A DNA stretch of 64,000 nucleotides from Planctomycetota bacterium. GTDB taxonomy: Bacteria > Planctomycetota > UBA1135 > UBA2386. The notes beneath the pieces are model-generated. The model saw only the letters and a program-made list of their open reading frames with translations. It was not told the origin of the DNA and did not search any database. Positions 2,864 to 12,939 of the stretch are shown here, in pieces (within the stretch, counting starts at the first letter, position 1; each line of letters begins with the position of its first letter). Both the position numbers and the translations under genes were made by a program. The stretch lies in contig OZ245006.1 in the NCBI GenBank assembly GCA_965223545.1, positions 3,904,001 to 3,968,000 of the forward strand, written 5' to 3'.

Positions 2864-3622
2864 TCACGCCAGGGGCGCGACGCGATCCGCCAACAGCCTG
2901 GTGATGGCGTCGGCTTCGTGCACGATCTTGCCGTCGATCCAAAGGCCGGGAGCCTGGTCGTTGCCCGCCCGTCCGCGCAGCTCCGCTGCCGCCGCGGTGT
3001 CGTCGGAGACGTTGCAGACCTTCAAGCCCTGCACCCCGAGGTTGTCGGCAGCGACGCGCACCCGGCGCGATGGACCGCACTTGGACTTCACGTAGAGGCA
3101 CGCATCCGCGGGCAGCGCGCCGCCGGACGCGAGGCCCTGCGCGGCGCCCTGCGCGGCTTGCACCTCGGTGCAGACCGACAGCAAGTCGTCGACAGAGCGG
3201 TGGCCCGCGGGCGTCACCGACTCCGAGTAGCGGATGATCCCCTTCTTGTCGATCACGACAGTGGCCCGATCGGTGATCCCGGCGTCGGCCAGGTAGTGGC
3301 CGAAGCCCTGCGCCATGGCCCCCTTGGGCTCGAAGTCGGCGAGCAGCGGGAACGACACGCCACCGAGGTCACGCCCCCAGTTGGCGTGGCAGTGAACGCT
3401 GTCGATCGAGACACCGAGGACGTGGGTGTCGAGGGCGCGGAAGCGGTCCAGTGCAGACTGCACTGCGGGGACTTCCTGGCTTCAAGTCGGCGTCCAGTCG
3501 AGCGGGTAGAAGAGGAGCAGCACGTTCGCCTTGTCGCGAAACTGGGCGAGAGTGACCGTGCGGCCGAACTGATCCTGCAGGCTGAAGTCCGGCGCCTGCG
3601 AGCCGGTCTGAGTCATGGACAT
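2864..3622 (-). CDS. Selenocysteine-containing peroxiredoxin (U47) fused to a C-terminal glutaredoxin-like domain
   Basis: ATG at 3622 with GGAG RBS reads MSMTQTGSQAPDFSLQDQFGRTVTLAQFRDKANVLLLFYPLDWTPT-TGA(3484-3482)-SQEVPAVQ, in frame with track ORF 2864..3463. The TGA occupies the Cys of the Prx PxxxTxxC motif. GVSIDS, FPLLADF and DRATVVID follow, then a KSKCGPS...PGLWIDG Grx-like tail. Confidence 0.9.
3439..3476 (-). promoter_or_regulatory. Bacterial SECIS-like hairpin of the peroxiredoxin
   Basis: mRNA +17..+33 after UGA: CAGUGCA-GUC-UGCACUG (7-bp perfect stem, 3465-3449), with a possible lower stem GGAAG/CUUCC. Confidence 0.8.
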
Positions 3623-3664
3623 GGTTTCTCCAGAGTACGGTGTGGGGTTGGGAGGATCGCGCCT

Positions 3665-4105
3665 TCAAGCCGCGAGGTAGGCGTTGAGCATCCAGACGGT
3701 CTGCTCTTGTTCGTCGGCGAAGCCCTCGAGCAAGTTCGTGGTCGCCGCGTCTTCGGCCTCGCCGGCCGCGGCTGCCGCCGCCCGCAGGGCGGCGTTCAAC
3801 GTGGTGTAGTCGTCGCGCAACCGGACCACCATGTCGTTGGCAGCCGGGCTGCCACCATCCTCGCTCAGGCGAGTCACGGCGAGCACGTCCTTCATCGTGT
3901 AGAGCGGCCTGCCGCCGAGCGCCGCGATGCGCTCGGCCAGTCCGTCGATCTTGAGCGCGGCATCGTCGTAGAGCTCTTCGAACTTGGCGTGCAGCGCGAA
4001 GAAGTTGGGGCCGGCAACGGTCCAGTGGTAGCCCCGCAGCTTGTGGTAGAGCACCTGGTAGTCGGCGAGCAAGGCGTTGAGTTGGGCAGCGGTCGAGTCG
4101 GTCAT
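3665..4105 (-). CDS. dps: Dps DNA-protecting mini-ferritin
   Basis: ATG at 4105 with GAGGA RBS; YHWTVAGPNFFALHAKFEELYD and DGLAERI ferroxidase motifs; 146 aa. Confidence 0.93.
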   Translation of the reverse strand: MTDSTAAQLNALLADYQVLYHKLRGYHWTVAGPNFFALHAKFEELYDDAALKIDGLAERIAALGGRPLYTMKDVLAVTRLSEDGGSPAANDMVVRLRDDYTTLNAALRAAAAAAGEAEDAATTNLLEGFADEQEQTVWMLNAYLAA

Positions 4106-4164
4106 TTGGAGTCCTCGGGAATCAGGATCGAGAGCAGGATCGAACCAAAGCAGGCCGGATTCCA

Positions 4165-4201
4165 ATTGATTACCTTTACCCCTCTCATAACTTGTCCTTA
4201 T
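4165..4201. promoter_or_regulatory. OxyR-type operator between divergent dps and oxyR
   Basis: ATTG-N7-TTAC-N7-ATAA-N7-TTAT, matching the spacing and 11/16 positions of the OxyR consensus ATAG-N7-CTAT-N7-ATAG-N7-CTAT; overlaps the oxyR ATG. Confidence 0.8.
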
Positions 4202-5099
4202 GAATGAGGCACGCCCCAGTGTGCGCCAGCTGGAGTACCTGGTGGCGCTGGCCGAGACCCTCAACTTCGGCCGCGCCGCCGAGCGCTGCTTGGTCAGCCA
4301 ACCCGCGCTGAGCACGCAGATCCGGACTCTGGAGCAGCTCTTGGGAGCACCGCTGTTCGAGCGCGACCGACGCCGGGTGCTACCCACCGCCACGGGCCTG
4401 CGCGCCGCTGGGCAAGCCCGCGACGTGCTGCAGCGCATCGACGCGCTGGTGGAAGGGGCGCGCCACAGCCACCCCCTGTCGGGCGAGCTGCGTCTCGGGG
4501 TGATTCCGACCATCGCGCCGTACGTGCTGCCCAGGGTGGTGCCACGACTGACGCGACGGTTTCCCGATCTGCGCCTACAGCTGCGCGAGGACGAGACCGC
4601 GCGACTGGTCGAGCAACTCGAGCGCGGCACCCTCGACCTCTTGCTGGTCGCGCTGGAAGCTCCGCTGGGGGCCAACCAAACGCTCGAACTGTACCGGGAC
4701 TCGTTCGTGCTGATCGCGCCGCAGGACCACCGGCTCGCGGTGCAACGGACCGTCCGCGAAACCGATCTGGCGGGTCGCGATCTGCTGCTGCTCGAAGAAG
4801 GACATTGACTGCGACAGCAAGCGCTGGCGGTCTGCCAGCGGAGCGGCGCCGCTGAAACCACGGGGCTGCGGGCCACGAGCCTGCACACCCTGGTGCGCAT
4901 GGTCGGCGCCGGTGCGGGTGCGACGCTGTTGCCACAGATGGCGATCGCCACCGAAGTGCGCCGCGCCGACCGCATCACCCTGCGCCGCTTCAAACGCGAT
5001 GGCCCTCACCGGACCATCGGACTGTGCTGGCGGCCGAACTCCGCCCGCGCCGACGGATTTCGCGAGCTGGCGTCGGTGTTTCGCGACGCCAGCAGCTGA
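4200..5099 (+). CDS. oxyR: OxyR H2O2-sensing LysR regulator with selenocysteine (U203) at the sensing-cysteine position
   Basis: LysR HTH (RQLEYLVALAETLNFGRAAERCLVSQPALSTQI), GVIPTIAPY, then LEEGH-TGA(4806-4808)-LRQQALAVC and RATSLHTLVRMVGAGAGATLLP in frame to stop 5099 (299 aa). Aligns with E. coli OxyR LEDGHC199LRDQAMGFC208 and RATSLETLRNMVAAGSGITLLP. Confidence 0.9.
4822..4840 (+). promoter_or_regulatory. Bacterial SECIS-like hairpin of oxyR
   Basis: +14..+32 after UGA: CGCUGGC-GGUCU-GCCAGCG, 7-bp perfect stem; the GGUCU apex is also present in the E. coli fdhF SECIS (GCAGGUCUGC). Confidence 0.8.
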
Positions 5100-5113: not shown

Positions 5114-7330
5114 TCAGGACTCGCGGCCGGGTTTCGCGCTTCCCGAAGCCTTCGCAGCCGGCGAGGCCTTCGCGCCCGGCGTAGCCTTCGCGCCCGGCGG
5201 CGCTTGCGCGGCGGGGGCCGCCGGGGCCGGCGGCGGCGCGCTCGACCCGGCCGGTTTGGATGCCCCCTTCTTCTCCGGCTCGGATCGAGGAATCTGAAAG
5301 CTGTTCTCCACCGGCTGGGTGAGCATGAACAGATCCATCTGCGAGTAGTGCGCCGTGAGGCGCTCGATCGCCCCACGCGCGGCGACCGCCTGCTCGCGCA
5401 CGGCGTCGAACGGCTCGAGCAGCCGGCGGCCGTTGGCCAGTTCCGCCGCGACGACCGTGGCCTCACGCTCGATCTTGTCGCGCTGCTGGCGCAGCGCCTG
5501 CCGCACCGCCGTCGCCACCCGCTCGGTGTAGCCCCGCGCAAACCCCGCGACGATGCGATCGGTGGTCTCCTTGAAGAACGAGCGCTCGTACTCCGCCAGG
5601 CGCCGCGCCATCGCCTGCCGCGCAGGTTGGCCGAGGAACGCCTCCTTCTGCGCCGCCGAAAGGCGTTGGCCCGGGGCCTCGGCAGGGCCGAACAGGCGCT
5701 TGCGCAGACCGTTCTTGCTGCGCAGCAGGAGGCGGTCGTGCACGCGTGGCCGCAGCTCGACGTGATCCGTGCGCAACGGCGTGGGTGGCACCGCGACCAA
5801 CGCCGCGCGATCGGCGCCGCGATGGGCCGCGCGCCCGATCTCCTCCGCGTCGATCCCACATTCGGCCATCGCCGTGCGGATCTCCTCGGGAATCGCGAAG
5901 CCGACTCCGTCGTGCACCAAGCGCTCGCTCACTTCTTTGCTGATCGCGTTGATCAGCTCCTCTTGGTGCGTGGTCAAGCGCGGCACGAGCTCGCCCTTGA
6001 CCAACTGCTGGAAGCTCGCATCGCCGGCGAACCAGCTGCGCATGGCCTCGTGCAACGCGCGCGACGACCGCTCACCGACGTGCTGCGCAACGTCGCGGCT
6101 GGCCTCGTTGAGCTGATCACTGAGCGAGGCGAGTTGATCTTCCCAGCCAAAACCCTCGAGCCGCTCGATGGCCGCGAGACCGCGCTTGTGATGCTCACGG
6201 CGCTCGACCAGGCGGTCGATGCGCTTGCGCAATCGATTGATCTGCCCGTGGCCGGTGACGTCGACCGACTCCGTCAACAGCGTGCGCGCACGGCGCAGGC
6301 TGTCGCCCAAGAAGGCGACCATGTAGTCGGTGCTGTTGAGGTACTTGGTGAGGTCGTCGAAGAAGCGATCGAAGCCTCGCCGAGCGCCAGCGCCATCGTC
6401 GACGTTGCGGATCCTGGCGCTCGCCGCGCGTAGCAGATCGACCGGATAGATCCGCAGCCGACCGCTCTCGGCGGCCTGCTTGAGCGGCGCGGTCATCGCC
6501 AGATTCTCGAAGGCCTGCACGACACGCGTCGGATCGCGCTGCTCGAGGCTGGGCACCAACCGGCCGTCGGAGCTCAGATCTTGCTTGGTCGAATCGATGT
6601 TGACCAACAGGAAGATGCGGCTGAACAGCTCGAGCAGATCGGTGAACTCGGCGAACACCTGCTCCAAGAACAGATTGTCGCTGCGCACGACGAACACCGC
6701 GCAGGCGGCGGCGTTGCGGAAGTCGCGCGTCATCCGGCTGTAGCCGAATTTCATTCGGCTGTAGAGGCCGGGAGTATCGACCAGGATCGCCCGCGACTCG
6801 CCCAACCCACCGGCCGGCAGCTTGATGTCGATCCGATCGATGGCGCTGTGCAGGTGTTGGCGCGGATCGAACGTCTGGCCGGTGGCCTCGATCTCGCGGA
6901 TGCGCGCCGCCAGCTCCTCGTGTGCGGTGCCGACGAACTCCTCGAGCTTCTCCGCCGACTCGAACCTCTCGACGCGCCCGTCGTAGCGGCGCGCTTCGTA
7001 GCTGCGCCGACTGGCGTGCTGCACGAACACCATGCACGGATAGGCAGGCAGACTGCTGACTTCGCTCACGTAGCCGGCGGCGATGGCGTTCATCAGCGTC
7101 GACTTGCCGCTCTTCAGCGGGCCGAAGATCAAAACGTAGGCCTGCTGGTCGCGGACCTTGTTGCTCAACAGCTCGACCTGGCGCCGCAGATCGACGAGCG
7201 GTGTCTGGAGCGCTGCGGCCACGTCGCGCGGCGCCGAGGCAATGACCTCGGCGGCACGCCCCAGCGGCGCCTGCAACGGCCGAATGGTCCGGACGAACTC
7301 CTCGCAAAAACGGCTGAGAACAGTCTGCAT
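5114..7330 (-). CDS. Dynamin-like GTPase with helical C-terminus and low-complexity tail
   Basis: P-loop GPLKSGKST, ILVDTPG (G3), long helical region; tail with PGAKA-type repeats. Confidence 0.8.
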   Translation of the reverse strand: MQTVLSRFCEEFVRTIRPLQAPLGRAAEVIASAPRDVAAALQTPLVDLRRQVELLSNKVRDQQAYVLIFGPLKSGKSTLMNAIAAGYVSEVSSLPAYPCMVFVQHASRRSYEARRYDGRVERFESAEKLEEFVGTAHEELAARIREIEATGQTFDPRQHLHSAIDRIDIKLPAGGLGESRAILVDTPGLYSRMKFGYSRMTRDFRNAAACAVFVVRSDNLFLEQVFAEFTDLLELFSRIFLLVNIDSTKQDLSSDGRLVPSLEQRDPTRVVQAFENLAMTAPLKQAAESGRLRIYPVDLLRAASARIRNVDDGAGARRGFDRFFDDLTKYLNSTDYMVAFLGDSLRRARTLLTESVDVTGHGQINRLRKRIDRLVERREHHKRGLAAIERLEGFGWEDQLASLSDQLNEASRDVAQHVGERSSRALHEAMRSWFAGDASFQQLVKGELVPRLTTHQEELINAISKEVSERLVHDGVGFAIPEEIRTAMAECGIDAEEIGRAAHRGADRAALVAVPPTPLRTDHVELRPRVHDRLLLRSKNGLRKRLFGPAEAPGQRLSAAQKEAFLGQPARQAMARRLAEYERSFFKETTDRIVAGFARGYTERVATAVRQALRQQRDKIEREATVVAAELANGRRLLEPFDAVREQAVAARGAIERLTAHYSQMDLFMLTQPVENSFQIPRSEPEKKGASKPAGSSAPPPAPAAPAAQAPPGAKATPGAKASPAAKASGSAKPGRES

Positions 7331-9072: not shown

Positions 9073-10455
9073 ATGGCTGGGAAGAGCAGAACGAGGAAGG
9101 GCAAGAAGCCCGCAGCGGAAGTATTGCCAGTCGTGAAGCCCAACGCCGCCGGAATCGACATCGGCAGCCGCGAGCACTGGGTGTGCGCAGCAGCACCCGA
9201 CGGCAGTCGTCCGATCAAGCGATTCGGAACGACGACGCCCCAGCTAGAGGCGCTCGCGGACTGGCTGGAGGAGCTCGGAGTGCGATCCGTCGCGATGGAG
9301 AGCACCTATGTCTACTGGATTCCCGTCTACGAGCTACTCGAGTCGAGAGGCTTCGAGGTCATCCTCGCGAATGCCCGCGAGGTGAAGAACGTGCCGGGCC
9401 GCTCCAAGTCCGATGCCAGCGATTGCAGTTGGCTGCAGAAGCTACACACCTATGGCCTCATTCGCGCTTCGTTCCGGCCTCCGAAGGACATCTGTGCGTT
9501 GCGGACCCTGCAACGCCATGCCGCGTCTTTGATCGCGCAGCGCACGCGCCACACGCAGTTGATGCAGCGGTCACTGGATCAGATGAACGTGGCGATCCAT
9601 CGCGCGGTAACGGACATCACCGGCAAGACCGGCCTCGCGATCATCCGCGCGATTCTCGCTGGTGAACGCGACCCTCGAGCGCTCGCCAGACTGCGTGATC
9701 CGCGCTGCAAGATCTCCGAGAAGGAGCTCGCGGATCACTTGCAAGGGACCTGGATCGAGGAGCACATCTTCACTCTCGCTTCGGGCTTGCGGATGCTCGA
9801 GCACACCGACCACGAGATCGAGTCGGTCGAGAAGCGATTGATGGCGATGATCGAGGACCTGCAACCGGAGGAAGCCAAGACGGCTGACGTCCCCGAGCAT
9901 CCAGACCCCCGCAAGGAGAGGAGCATCCGAACGAAGGGCGGCCGGGAGCTTCGCGATGCCCTCTGCCGGCTCGTCGGGTGTGATCTCACGCGAATCGACG
10001 GTATCAGCCCGAGCACGGCCATGATCGTGCTCACCGAGGTCGGCTACGACCTCGATGCTTTCCCGACCGAGAAGCACTTCGTCTCCTGGCTACGCCTGTG
10101 CCCACGTCAAGCCGTCTCGGGTGGAAAGCGCATCAAGAAGCACCGCAACAACATCGCGGTCAGCAGGATCGCCACGGTCCTCCGGATGGCCGCCCTGTCC
10201 CTCCAACGTACTCAGACAGCTCTCGGCGCACACTTCCGCAAGATCGCCCGCGCGAAGGACGGCAACGTCGCCATCTTTGCCATCGCCCGCAAACTGGCCC
10301 TGCTCATCTACCGCATGCTGAAGTTCGGCCAGGACTACGTAGACGAAGGCGCCAAGGCCTACGAGGAGCGCTTCACCCAGCGACGCATCGTCGGACTCCG
10401 ACAGAACGCTAAATCCCTCGGGTACAAGCTCATACCGATCGTCGAGGCTGGGTGA
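9073..10455 (+). CDS. IS110-family recombinase/transposase
   Basis: DEDD RuvC-like motifs GIDIG, AMEST, KSDASD; C-terminal Tnp domain with IDGIS and VSGGK serine loop. Confidence 0.95.
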   Translation: MAGKSRTRKGKKPAAEVLPVVKPNAAGIDIGSREHWVCAAAPDGSRPIKRFGTTTPQLEALADWLEELGVRSVAMESTYVYWIPVYELLESRGFEVILANAREVKNVPGRSKSDASDCSWLQKLHTYGLIRASFRPPKDICALRTLQRHAASLIAQRTRHTQLMQRSLDQMNVAIHRAVTDITGKTGLAIIRAILAGERDPRALARLRDPRCKISEKELADHLQGTWIEEHIFTLASGLRMLEHTDHEIESVEKRLMAMIEDLQPEEAKTADVPEHPDPRKERSIRTKGGRELRDALCRLVGCDLTRIDGISPSTAMIVLTEVGYDLDAFPTEKHFVSWLRLCPRQAVSGGKRIKKHRNNIAVSRIATVLRMAALSLQRTQTALGAHFRKIARAKDGNVAIFAIARKLALLIYRMLKFGQDYVDEGAKAYEERFTQRRIVGLRQNAKSLGYKLIPIVEAG

Positions 10456-10531: not shown

Positions 10532-11533
10532 ATGCCCAGGACGACTCGGGTCGACTTCCCCGGAGCGTGGCATCACGTCGTGAACCGTGGCTTGGCGAAG
10601 AGGACCGTCTTCGAGAATCGCGCCGACATGCGTCGGTTCTTGGCCGGCCTCGCACGCGCCGTGCGTCGCGGAGAGATCGAGCTCCACAGCTACTGCCTGA
10701 TGACGACCCACTTTCACCTTCTTGTCTCGAGCCCGCGCGGTCTCCTTTCGACCGCGATGCGGCGAGTGGAGCAGAGCTACGTCCGTCGGTTCAACCGCCA
10801 GCGGCGCCGCGACGGGTCCTTGTTTCGCGGTCGGTTCTTTTCGAGGCCAGTCCACTCCGACGCGGACCGGAGAATCGTGGTGCGCTACATCGACCACAAT
10901 CCCGTGGCAGCGCGCGTCGTCGACGTGCCGACGGAGTATGAGTTCGGGAGCGCGTCTCGGTTCGCCTCCGACAGTGTTCCGCCGTGGCTCGCCATGGGGT
11001 GGATGCGTGACGTGCTTGCCGGTGCGGCGTTCGCGGGGCGATCCCGCGCCGAGACGTATCTGGATGCCTTCGGCGAGATCGGCGCCGATCACCGGCATTT
11101 GGTGCACCGGCGCATGGAGCACCGTCCTCGGGAAAGCGACCCTCTCGACGATCTCCTTGCCGCAGCTCCCGAGGCAGTGCGGCAATGGATGATGAGGAAG
11201 GCTCGCCTCGCCGACGGCAGCCGGCCGGGGTTGCCCCTCTTGGGCCCGAGATCCGCCATGTTGGCCTGTGCCGACGATCAGGCGCGACGTGGGCCCTGGT
11301 CCGTTGTGGTCCGCTCCCGTTCGCGCGACGCGTCGCGGCTGGCGCAGGTCTATCTGCTGCGCGATGGCTGCGGGTTCTCGTTTGCGGAGATCGCAAACCA
11401 ACAGGGGATTTCGCCGGCGACCGCAAGCCGGTGCTTCGACGCACACCTGGCAGCGATGAAGGAGGATCACGACTACGCGGCGCGGCTAGCGACCCTGGCG
11501 CAGGATGCCTTCAGGCGTTGTCATCAAAGGTGA
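10532..11533 (+). CDS. REP-associated tyrosine transposase (RAYT, Y1 HUH) with C-terminal HTH
   Basis: PGAWHHVVNRG, YCLMTTHFHLL (HUH), GSLFRGRF, VRYIDHNPV (catalytic Tyr); C-terminal SFAEIANQQGISPATAS HTH. Confidence 0.9.
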   Translation: MPRTTRVDFPGAWHHVVNRGLAKRTVFENRADMRRFLAGLARAVRRGEIELHSYCLMTTHFHLLVSSPRGLLSTAMRRVEQSYVRRFNRQRRRDGSLFRGRFFSRPVHSDADRRIVVRYIDHNPVAARVVDVPTEYEFGSASRFASDSVPPWLAMGWMRDVLAGAAFAGRSRAETYLDAFGEIGADHRHLVHRRMEHRPRESDPLDDLLAAAPEAVRQWMMRKARLADGSRPGLPLLGPRSAMLACADDQARRGPWSVVVRSRSRDASRLAQVYLLRDGCGFSFAEIANQQGISPATASRCFDAHLAAMKEDHDYAARLATLAQDAFRRCHQR

Positions 11534-11556: not shown

Positions 11557-12939
11557 TCACCCAGCCTCGACGATCGGTATGAGCTTGTACCCGAGGGATT
11601 TAGCGTTCTGTCGGAGTCCGACGATGCGTCGCTGGGTGAAGCGCTCCTCGTAGGCCTTGGCGCCTTCGTCTACGTAGTCCTGGCCGAACTTCAGCATGCG
11701 GTAGATGAGCAGGGCCAGTTTGCGGGCGATGGCAAAGATGGCGACGTTGCCGTCCTTCGCGCGGGCGATCTTGCGGAAGTGTGCGCCGAGAGCTGTCTGA
11801 GTACGTTGGAGGGACAGGGCGGCCATCCGGAGGACCGTGGCGATCCTGCTGACCGCGATGTTGTTGCGGTGCTTCTTGATGCGCTTTCCACCCGAGACGG
11901 CTTGACGTGGGCACAGGCGTAGCCAGGAGACGAAGTGCTTCTCGGTCGGGAAAGCATCGAGGTCGTAGCCGACCTCGGTGAGCACGATCATGGCCGTGCT
12001 CGGGCTGATACCGTCGATTCGCGTGAGATCACACCCGACGAGCCGGCAGAGGGCATCGCGAAGCTCCCGGCCGCCCTTCGTTCGGATGCTCCTCTCCTTG
12101 CGGGGGTCTGGATGCTCGGGGACGTCGGCCGTCTTGGCTTCCTCCGGTTGCAGGTCCTCGATCATCGCCATCAATCGCTTCTCGACCGACTCGATCTCGT
12201 GGTCGGTGTGCTCGAGCATCCGCAAGCCCGAAGCGAGAGTGAAGATGTGCTCCTCGATCCAGGTCCCTTGCAAGTGATCCGCGAGCTCCTTCTCGGAGAT
12301 CTTGCAGCGCGGATCACGCAGTCTGGCGAGCGCTCGAGGGTCGCGTTCACCAGCGAGAATCGCGCGGATGATCGCGAGGCCGGTCTTGCCGGTGATGTCC
12401 GTTACCGCGCGATGGATCGCCACGTTCATCTGATCCAGTGACCGCTGCATCAACTGCGTGTGGCGCGTGCGCTGCGCGATCAAAGACGCGGCATGGCGTT
12501 GCAGGGTCCGCAACGCACAGATGTCCTTCGGAGGCCGGAACGAAGCGCGAATGAGGCCATAGGTGTGTAGCTTCTGCAGCCAACTGCAATCGCTGGCATC
12601 GGACTTGGAGCGGCCCGGCACGTTCTTCACCTCGCGGGCATTCGCGAGGATGACCTCGAAGCCTCTCGACTCGAGTAGCTCGTAGACGGGAATCCAGTAG
12701 ACATAGGTGCTCTCCATCGCGACGGATCGCACTCCGAGCTCCTCCAGCCAGTCCGCGAGCGCCTCTAGTTGGGGCGTCGTCGTTCCGAATCGCTTGATCG
12801 GACGACTGCCGTCGGGTGCTGCTGCGCACACCCAGTGCTCGCGGCTGCCGATGTCGATTCCGGCGGCGTTGGGCTTCACGACTGGTAATACTTCCGCTGC
12901 GGGCTTCTTGCCCTTCCTCGTTCTGCCCTTCCGAGCCAT
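11557..12939 (-). CDS. IS110-family recombinase/transposase
   Basis: 460 aa, differs from copy 1 only at the N-terminus (MARKGR vs MAGKSR). Confidence 0.95.
   Translation of the reverse strand: MARKGRTRKGKKPAAEVLPVVKPNAAGIDIGSREHWVCAAAPDGSRPIKRFGTTTPQLEALADWLEELGVRSVAMESTYVYWIPVYELLESRGFEVILANAREVKNVPGRSKSDASDCSWLQKLHTYGLIRASFRPPKDICALRTLQRHAASLIAQRTRHTQLMQRSLDQMNVAIHRAVTDITGKTGLAIIRAILAGERDPRALARLRDPRCKISEKELADHLQGTWIEEHIFTLASGLRMLEHTDHEIESVEKRLMAMIEDLQPEEAKTADVPEHPDPRKERSIRTKGGRELRDALCRLVGCDLTRIDGISPSTAMIVLTEVGYDLDAFPTEKHFVSWLRLCPRQAVSGGKRIKKHRNNIAVSRIATVLRMAALSLQRTQTALGAHFRKIARAKDGNVAIFAIARKLALLIYRMLKFGQDYVDEGAKAYEERFTQRRIVGLRQNAKSLGYKLIPIVEAG

Follow-up and report, generated by a model that had tools for sequence, protein, structure and literature searches.

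The locus at positions 2864 to 5099 of a 64,000-nucleotide stretch of planctomycetal DNA (hereafter the window; positions 3,904,001 to 3,968,000 of contig OZ245006.1 in the Planctomycetota assembly GCA_965223545.1) raises the question of whether a peroxide regulator of the OxyR type can use selenocysteine (Sec) in the place of its peroxidatic cysteine (Cys), and whether the regulon under its control depends on selenium as a unit. An oxyR-type gene of the LysR family (4200-5099, plus strand) stands head to head with dps (4105-3665, minus strand), which is followed by the peroxiredoxin gene prx (3622-2864, minus strand); the spacer between oxyR and dps (4106-4199) measures 94 bp and the gap between dps and prx (3623-3664) 42 bp, and coordinates derived anew agree throughout with the divergent arrangement given in an earlier note on this DNA. 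An in-frame TGA occupies the peroxidatic position in both outer genes, at oxyR codon 203 (4806-4808, plus strand) and at prx codon 47 (3482-3484, minus strand), and in both cases it is likely to specify selenocysteine. Judged from comparative sequence evidence, the locus very probably encodes a Sec-OxyR whose operator is real and whose regulon consists of one operon.

The predicted OxyR comprises 299 amino acids when TGA203 is read through, and 202 when translation under table 11 stops at this codon, within the context EEGH-TGA-LRQQALAVC. In an alignment of 45 rows, the column of codon 203 is an invariant Cys in all 44 full-length homologues of the window protein, and T104, T133, H202, C212, and R271 are invariant in every row; together with position 203 they correspond to T100, T129, H198, C199, C208, and R270 of the Pseudomonas aeruginosa OxyR, and thus to the pocket residue set described for that protein (PMC7231847, section 3.1), including the resolving C208 (PMC3378865). 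A structure model with Cys placed at position 203 (mean predicted local distance difference test score 95) contains the LysR-type helix-turn-helix and the regulatory domain fold, and its top Foldseek matches are OxyR chains (E 2.4e-30). The window protein has the same fold, the same pocket residues, and the same nine-residue spacing to the resolving Cys as the OxyR proteins of Escherichia coli, P. aeruginosa, and Corynebacterium glutamicum (PDB 1i69/1i6a, 4x6g, and 6g1b/6g1d/6g4r), but differs from them in carrying TGA, presumably Sec, for Cys199; since the codon for this residue is TGA, the protein is filed as an OxyR variant and not as a canonical OxyR. It is the sole oxyR detected in the host genome (8.1 Mb, 91% complete), and its closest named OxyR homologues are mostly from Planctomycetota. 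The sequence itself appears reliable: a Logan contig of run X1, possibly the source sample, is identical over all 2701 bases compared, and over the oxyR TGA and the hairpin that follows it, no difference is seen in a 127-base piece (depth 2.2) that comes from a second study, X5, so that an assembly error behind the TGA is unlikely.

The TGA codon recurs in oxyR genes elsewhere. A degenerate DNA pattern that includes the TGA retrieved 20 stretches from metagenomes, 19 of them OxyR homologues with 39-57% identity and frames open past the TGA; it matched in eight of 400 genomes of the phylum, four times in oxyR, and in five of 338 other genomes of the order, once in oxyR. The matches outside oxyR were dropped (L052 among the 20; L073-L076 among the eight; L121, L123, L125, and L126 among the five). 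After removal of identical 45-base contexts, 21 TGA-oxyR sequences remained besides that of the window, and in these other copies the frames stay open for approximately 92-107 codons past the TGA. All four phylum genomes with a TGA-oxyR have tRNA-Sec (anticodon TCA), and three each have selA and selB; the missing selA and the missing selB fall in different fragmented assemblies. Protein databases point the same way. Among the best 120 matches to the 202-residue fragment as which the window's own gene is deposited, 24 proteins are short, and 22 of these, the query included, end in "...GH", one residue before the Sec site; 93 of the 96 full-length proteins in this set have Cys at the site, and three could not be parsed. 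The short "...GH" proteins form 20 groups at 80% identity and partially overlap with the TGA-oxyR loci. On a tree of 44 rows (L053 and L063, with fewer than 200 amino acids, and four non-OxyR matches left out), the TGA and Cys forms are interspersed; the tree requires seven changes between them, at least four of them forced by well-supported branches, and a single origin of Sec-OxyR was recovered in 0 of 200 bootstrap trees, which are unrooted and do not distinguish gain from loss. The TGA is shared by the sister pairs L069/L070, L071/L072, L050/L054, and L049/L064.

The host genome has selA, selB, selD, and tRNA-Sec (anticodon TCA), all above their cut-offs, and selD itself carries a TGA; moreover, eight of its 22 open reading frames (ORFs) with an AhpC/TSA domain have an in-frame TGA, including a BCP-like protein with TPGU and a thioredoxin-like protein with WUGPC, so that by its predicted gene content this genome is selenoprotein-rich. 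Behind each TGA of the window locus lies a hairpin that resembles a selenocysteine insertion sequence (SECIS). The oxyR hairpin (4822-4840, plus strand) has a 7-bp stem and a 5-nt loop starting with GG, located 20 nt past the TGA, and the codon of the resolving Cys212 lies within it; the prx hairpin (3449-3465, minus strand) has a 7-bp stem and a 3-nt loop starting with G, located 23 nt past the TGA. Both conform to the bacterial SECIS (bSECIS) model, which calls for a loop of 3-9 nt with G in one of the first two places, a stem of 4-16 bp, and a distance of 16-37 nt from the UGA (PMC13188914). The window hairpins share this geometry with E. coli fdhF-type genes, whose in-frame SECIS is read by SelB; unlike in those genes, the host gene of the oxyR hairpin encodes a DNA-binding regulator.

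The oxyR hairpin is associated with the TGA codon. In the register of the window, the stem runs without interruption over at least 5 bp in 11 of 21 TGA-oxyR sequences and in one of 48 Cys-oxyR sequences, although the resulting p-value of 2e-6 overstates the contrast because kin sequences are not independent. Where the key codon specifies Ala, stem runs are mostly 4-8 in TGA sequences (n = 16) and 2 in eight of ten Cys sequences. One stem pair reads C-G in nine, G-C in six, and U-A in one of the 21 TGA sequences; overall, 68.7% of stem cells pair, compared to 35-50% for slid partners, and in L122 a change from Ala to Thr comes together with a change from TGC to TGT that keeps the stem. On balance, both TGAs, in oxyR and in prx, most likely behave like selenocysteine codons.

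A number of observations weigh against this reading. The OxyR model of NCBIfam, NF008361, scored 271.5 bits with C at position 203, short of its cut-off of 329, and was still the best of 52 families. The pattern that underlies the recurrence survey fixed part of the sequence context in advance. Within the family of the window genome, an oxyR match was obtained in 19 genomes and has TGA in only one of them, even though selA is present in 84 of 91. Covariation in the stem is modest. For the number of paired cells, the double changes, and the covariation score, between five and eight of 500 shuffles do as well as the real alignment, and for both pair-count measures the alignment does no better than shuffles; relatedness alone could produce such values, and kin are not independent. 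Eight of the 21 TGA sequences have fewer than four contiguous pairs in the window's register; six TGA sequences other than L063 and L068 fold in other registers. The hairpin is missing altogether from L063 and L068, two TGA-oxyR sequences of lower GC content, of which L068 is the sister of a Cys-coded gammaproteobacterial gene; these two may be errors or pseudogenes. Conversely, one Cys-coded oxyR (L104, G468:C229) has a full 8-bp SECIS-like stem, which may have been left over from a loss of Sec, may represent pre-adaptation, or may have arisen by chance. The stem is also partly dictated by the codons for A-L-A-x-C; a stem already laid out by the L-A-x-C codons would make an exchange between Cys and Sec easy. 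As a separate observation, a SECIS loop motif common to the selenoprotein genes of this genome was looked for and not seen.

The divergent operon opens with dps (3665-4105, minus strand), which encodes a ferritin-like protein of 146 amino acids and has no in-frame TGA; Dps models matched it below their cut-offs, and it is the sole dps match in the genome. The prx product, of 252 amino acids with read-through, is a peroxiredoxin-glutaredoxin (Prx-Grx) fusion, with the motif PxxxTxxU at residues 40-47 of its AhpC/TSA domain and a C-terminal glutaredoxin domain (PF00462, residues 176-234, motif CGPS) that was absent from the earlier note. The Prx-Grx TGA is conserved in all seven homologues from the family, and the prx homologues fold different hairpins in different registers. 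These homologues (L114-L120) form a small conserved family of Sec-Prx-Grx proteins in seven of 90 family genomes, all with TGA and with a C-x-x-S-like Grx motif, one of them CPVC. The window Prx shares the PxxxTxxU motif and a downstream hairpin with PrxU of Eubacterium acidaminophilum, a TxxU protein, but carries the Grx domain in addition; with 80.6 bits on NF040737, the NCBIfam model of PrxU, against a cut-off of 270, it is not PrxU itself. A Sec-Prx of the TxxU type is an already known kind of selenoprotein, as catalogued in Table 1 of PMC13188914.

The spacer between oxyR and dps contains a four-box OxyR-type operator (4165-4201; ATTG-N7-TTAC-N7-ATAA-N7-TTAT), the last box of which overlaps the oxyR ATG. 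Against four copies of the bare consensus of the ATAG-repeat operator motif of OxyR (PMC3378865), this site scores 11 of 16, a value that 78 sites on contig C1 reach or exceed, so that a match to the consensus is, taken by itself, no better than expected by chance. Boxes of a similar kind occupy the corresponding position upstream of most other TGA-oxyR genes. When 12 of these operators, without the window's own site, are turned into a matrix, the window operator ranks first genome-wide with 36.2 bits; the next site has 13.8. A box-only, symmetrised matrix applied to C1 gives 25.3 bits, compared to 20.1 for the next site. Both matrices omit L057 and L068, where no site was found, as well as near-duplicates and loci with too little upstream DNA. 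The operator is also better conserved at TGA-oxyR loci. A real operator at 4165-4201 is thus supported by phylogenetic footprinting, and binding by OxyR is predicted. No notable operator lies upstream of katG, ahpC, prx6, or the TGA-bearing bcp-like gene (best score 10.4 bits), and under two foreign matrices no convincing second operator was found in the genome, although weak sites may exist. The predicted regulon that these results support consists of one operon and oxyR itself, compared to more than 100 targets for P. aeruginosa OxyR; the four-box operator at the regulator's own start and the neighbouring dps and peroxiredoxin genes, both known OxyR targets (PMC3378865), are shared with the well-studied systems. 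Two proposals of the earlier note hold: a four-box operator that overlaps the oxyR start is present, now ranked first in the genome under foreign matrices, and "self-contained" is a fitting term for the OxyR regulon, because the genome yielded no other strong operator. In 11 of 15 operators (L049, L050, L051, L056, L060, L064, L065, L069-L071, and L122), though not in that of the window, box 1 is preceded at a distance of 11 bases by a fifth box, which mostly reads TGAT; we take it to resemble the five-box oxyR/oxyS site, on which OxyR acts in both its reduced and its oxidised form.

Within the operator, a TAnnnT hexamer (4188-4193, plus strand), the putative -10 box of a leaderless oxyR transcript, ends 6 nt before the ATG, the spacing expected of a leaderless -10 box. 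Of 15 loci, 12 have the hexamer within the operator, and six, the window included, have it at this same distance. The arrangement suggests that the oxyR message is leaderless, a likely difference from the OxyR systems of reference, and that its -10 box would be covered by OxyR; a strict scan for sigma-70 promoters and terminators, which gave 0 sites, speaks against this. The view that no Shine-Dalgarno sequence is evident at the locus stands for oxyR and fails for the other two genes, which have ordinary ribosome-binding sites (GAGGA 6 nt before the ATG of dps; GGAG for prx).

Beyond the locus, two features of the window may be recorded. A dynamin-like protein of 738 amino acids (5114-7330, minus strand; Pfam Dynamin_N) is encoded convergently to oxyR, with 14 bases between it and the oxyR stop codon. 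Two near-identical ORFs of 460 amino acids, presumably transposase-like, face each other (9073-10455, plus strand; 11557-12939, minus strand) around an ORF of 333 amino acids (10532-11533).

Whether the joint use of selenium by sensor and scavenger is a conserved design can be judged from the other loci. Among the 21 other TGA-oxyR sequences, a peroxiredoxin gene is a neighbour in ten, katG in two, and dps alone in one; dps stands beside four in all, and eight, several of them on short contigs, have no prx, dps, or katG neighbour. All ten peroxiredoxins have an active-site Cys (AhpC, Prx5, Prx5-Grx, and Prx6 types). Conversely, neither oxyR nor dps was found within the 1.5-kb flanks of any of the seven TGA-Prx homologue loci. 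The combination of oxyR(TGA), dps, and prx(TGA) proposed for a synteny search accordingly has no second example among the 21 TGA-oxyR sequences, several of which lie on short contigs, or the seven TGA-Prx loci. The head-to-head layout with a common operator is shared with divergent oxyR-ahpC(D), oxyR-dps, and oxyR-katG loci and recurs with TGA-oxyR in L049, L056, L060, L064-L066, and L127-L131; the order dps followed by Sec-Prx-Grx, unlike in those divergent loci, was seen in no other locus examined.

The genome also retains selenium-free scavengers: a Cys-AhpC, a Cys-Prx6, and KatG, whose gene is intact and immediately follows a gene of the Fur family (G000:C1:3461943-3464735). The Fur-katG pair suggests a second, selenium-free peroxide circuit of the FurA/PerR-like kind. 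An apparent internal stop in katG was rejected, as it is the normal gene end; a monofunctional catalase had no match in the genome, which is 91% complete. The earlier note had both sensor and scavenger depend on selenium; this is borne out by the TGA codons in oxyR and prx at the window locus, and is not borne out at other TGA-oxyR loci, where none of the ten peroxiredoxins has a TGA. As a general principle, joint selenium dependence is not upheld; it is seen only here, within an operon whose dps has no TGA, and in a cell that keeps Cys-AhpC, Cys-Prx6, and KatG. The pairing of TGA-oxyR and TGA-prx is best read as a local arrangement, given the 0/10 and 0/7 synteny counts and the retained Cys scavengers; on the gene content, it would make the sensor and the peroxidase of the window regulon both selenium-dependent, though not the cell's peroxide defence as a whole.

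Among the other explanations, the one that survives best sees the locus as a means of measuring selenium: low selenium would lead to termination at the UGA and to a stable, operator-binding OxyR of 202 amino acids that represses without being inducible or has a dominant-negative effect, which we consider unlikely; that selenium supply would in this way set the output of a one-operon regulon whose peroxidase also needs selenium is doubtful to the same degree. In its favor, termination in the structure model leaves the helix-turn-helix (residues 8-62) and the linker helix (64-88) intact, both oxyR and prx carry the TGA at this locus, and the sole oxyR and sole strong operator of the genome would make a closed circuit. 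The earlier note's expectation of a 202-residue product that keeps its helix-turn-helix is correct in this respect. The loss is not confined to the redox centre, however; the cut would remove the modelled helices 203-215, 228-236, 246-252, and 284-298 and strands 241-245, 259-264, and 270-277, which amounts to half of the regulatory domain. In regulators of the LysR type this domain is needed for folding and for tetramer formation. Furthermore, the scavengers at other TGA-oxyR loci are selenium-free (none of the ten peroxiredoxins has a TGA, and KatG is the neighbour in two cases), so that their shut-off would be harmful, and a repressive truncation is hard to rationalise because the targets are selenium-free in most loci. 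Truncation would also follow for any gene with an in-frame UGA and is not specific to oxyR.

A second alternative, in which either Cys or Trp is inserted at the TGA, as a constitutive or a fallback event, and the product is an ordinary or crippled OxyR but no selenoprotein, is considerably less probable still. Low-level insertion of Cys or Trp at UGA is known from other systems, and some TGA copies have no clear hairpin; yet the tRNA with the TCA anticodon is tRNA-Sec, and the oxyR hairpin fits the bSECIS model and is enriched with the TGA. The codon has not been reassigned either, since oxyR, dps, and prx themselves end in TGA. The weakest alternative, an oxyR pseudogene whose TGA arose from TGC by nonsense mutation or from a sequencing error, would need just a single base change, could draw on the interspersed TGA and Cys forms on the tree, and may apply to the hairpin-less L063 and L068, but, with a stop that is always at the same codon and always TGA, frames that stay open far beyond it, sister pairs that share it, contigs from two studies that carry it, and operators better kept at TGA loci, it is largely refuted and highly improbable.

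The preferred reading, a Sec-OxyR with a single operator, leads to the following scheme. SelB would read the oxyR hairpin and insert Sec203. Hydrogen peroxide would oxidise Sec203 to a selenenic acid, and condensation with Cys212 would yield a selenylsulfide that drives the usual OxyR switch. The predicted binding site of OxyR is the one operator of the 94-bp spacer, from which the protein would repress oxyR and activate the divergent dps/prx-grx operon; autorepression would come about as the operator covers the -10 box of the leaderless oxyR message. Dps would then sequester iron, and the Sec-Prx would remove peroxide and would probably be recycled by its fused Grx domain. The likely gain from selenocysteine is a sensor that is faster or more sensitive, and more easily reversed; density functional theory (DFT) calculations put the proton-transfer barrier at 25.55 kcal/mol for Sec and 30.95 kcal/mol for Cys, and find a kinetic and thermodynamic advantage for Sec (PMC7231847). 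The Sec-Prx partner would be a local acquisition in a selenoprotein-rich genome rather than a component that Sec-OxyR systems share. If selenium ran short, full-length OxyR and Prx would, in the simplest case, be lost, with KatG and the Cys peroxiredoxins as back-up.

Sec variants of OxyR were stated to be undiscovered in 2020 (PMC7231847), and for Sec compared to Cys in OxyR the DFT prediction in the same source is all that is available so far. Table 1 of PMC13188914 (2026) has no OxyR or LysR row among its 119 selenoprotein families; its nearest regulatory-sounding rows are "putative regulatory protein, FmdB family" and CopZ-like. By term search, OxyR is absent from the main texts of BSepDB (PMC13326102), deep-Sep (PMC12013277), and SelCysML (PMC13745706), and it is absent from the supplementary files checked for BSepDB, possibly an incomplete set, and for deep-Sep. 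No report of a natural Sec-OxyR was found in the literature searched, a coverage that mostly excludes subscription papers. For the window locus, the present analysis adds the single-site test of the regulon, the case for a leaderless promoter, and the negative synteny result.

The catalogued bacterial selenoproteins are mostly redox enzymes or proteins of transport or metal binding, and no regulator of the LysR family was found among them. TGA-oxyR genes are evidently mis-annotated, since databases hold them as fragments of approximately 200 amino acids (the 22 noted above among the best 120 matches). With one sensor, one operator, and one operon, which together make a complete reporter, the window locus is a compact test system, and Sec-OxyR might, speculatively, serve for more sensitive probes of the HyPer type. 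For the OxyR family, the interspersed forms and the position of the resolving-Cys codon within the hairpin make this a tractable case of repeated exchange between Cys and Sec; a natural Sec-OxyR would offer a direct test of what selenium does in a signalling switch, in terms of threshold, speed, and reversibility relative to the Cys form.

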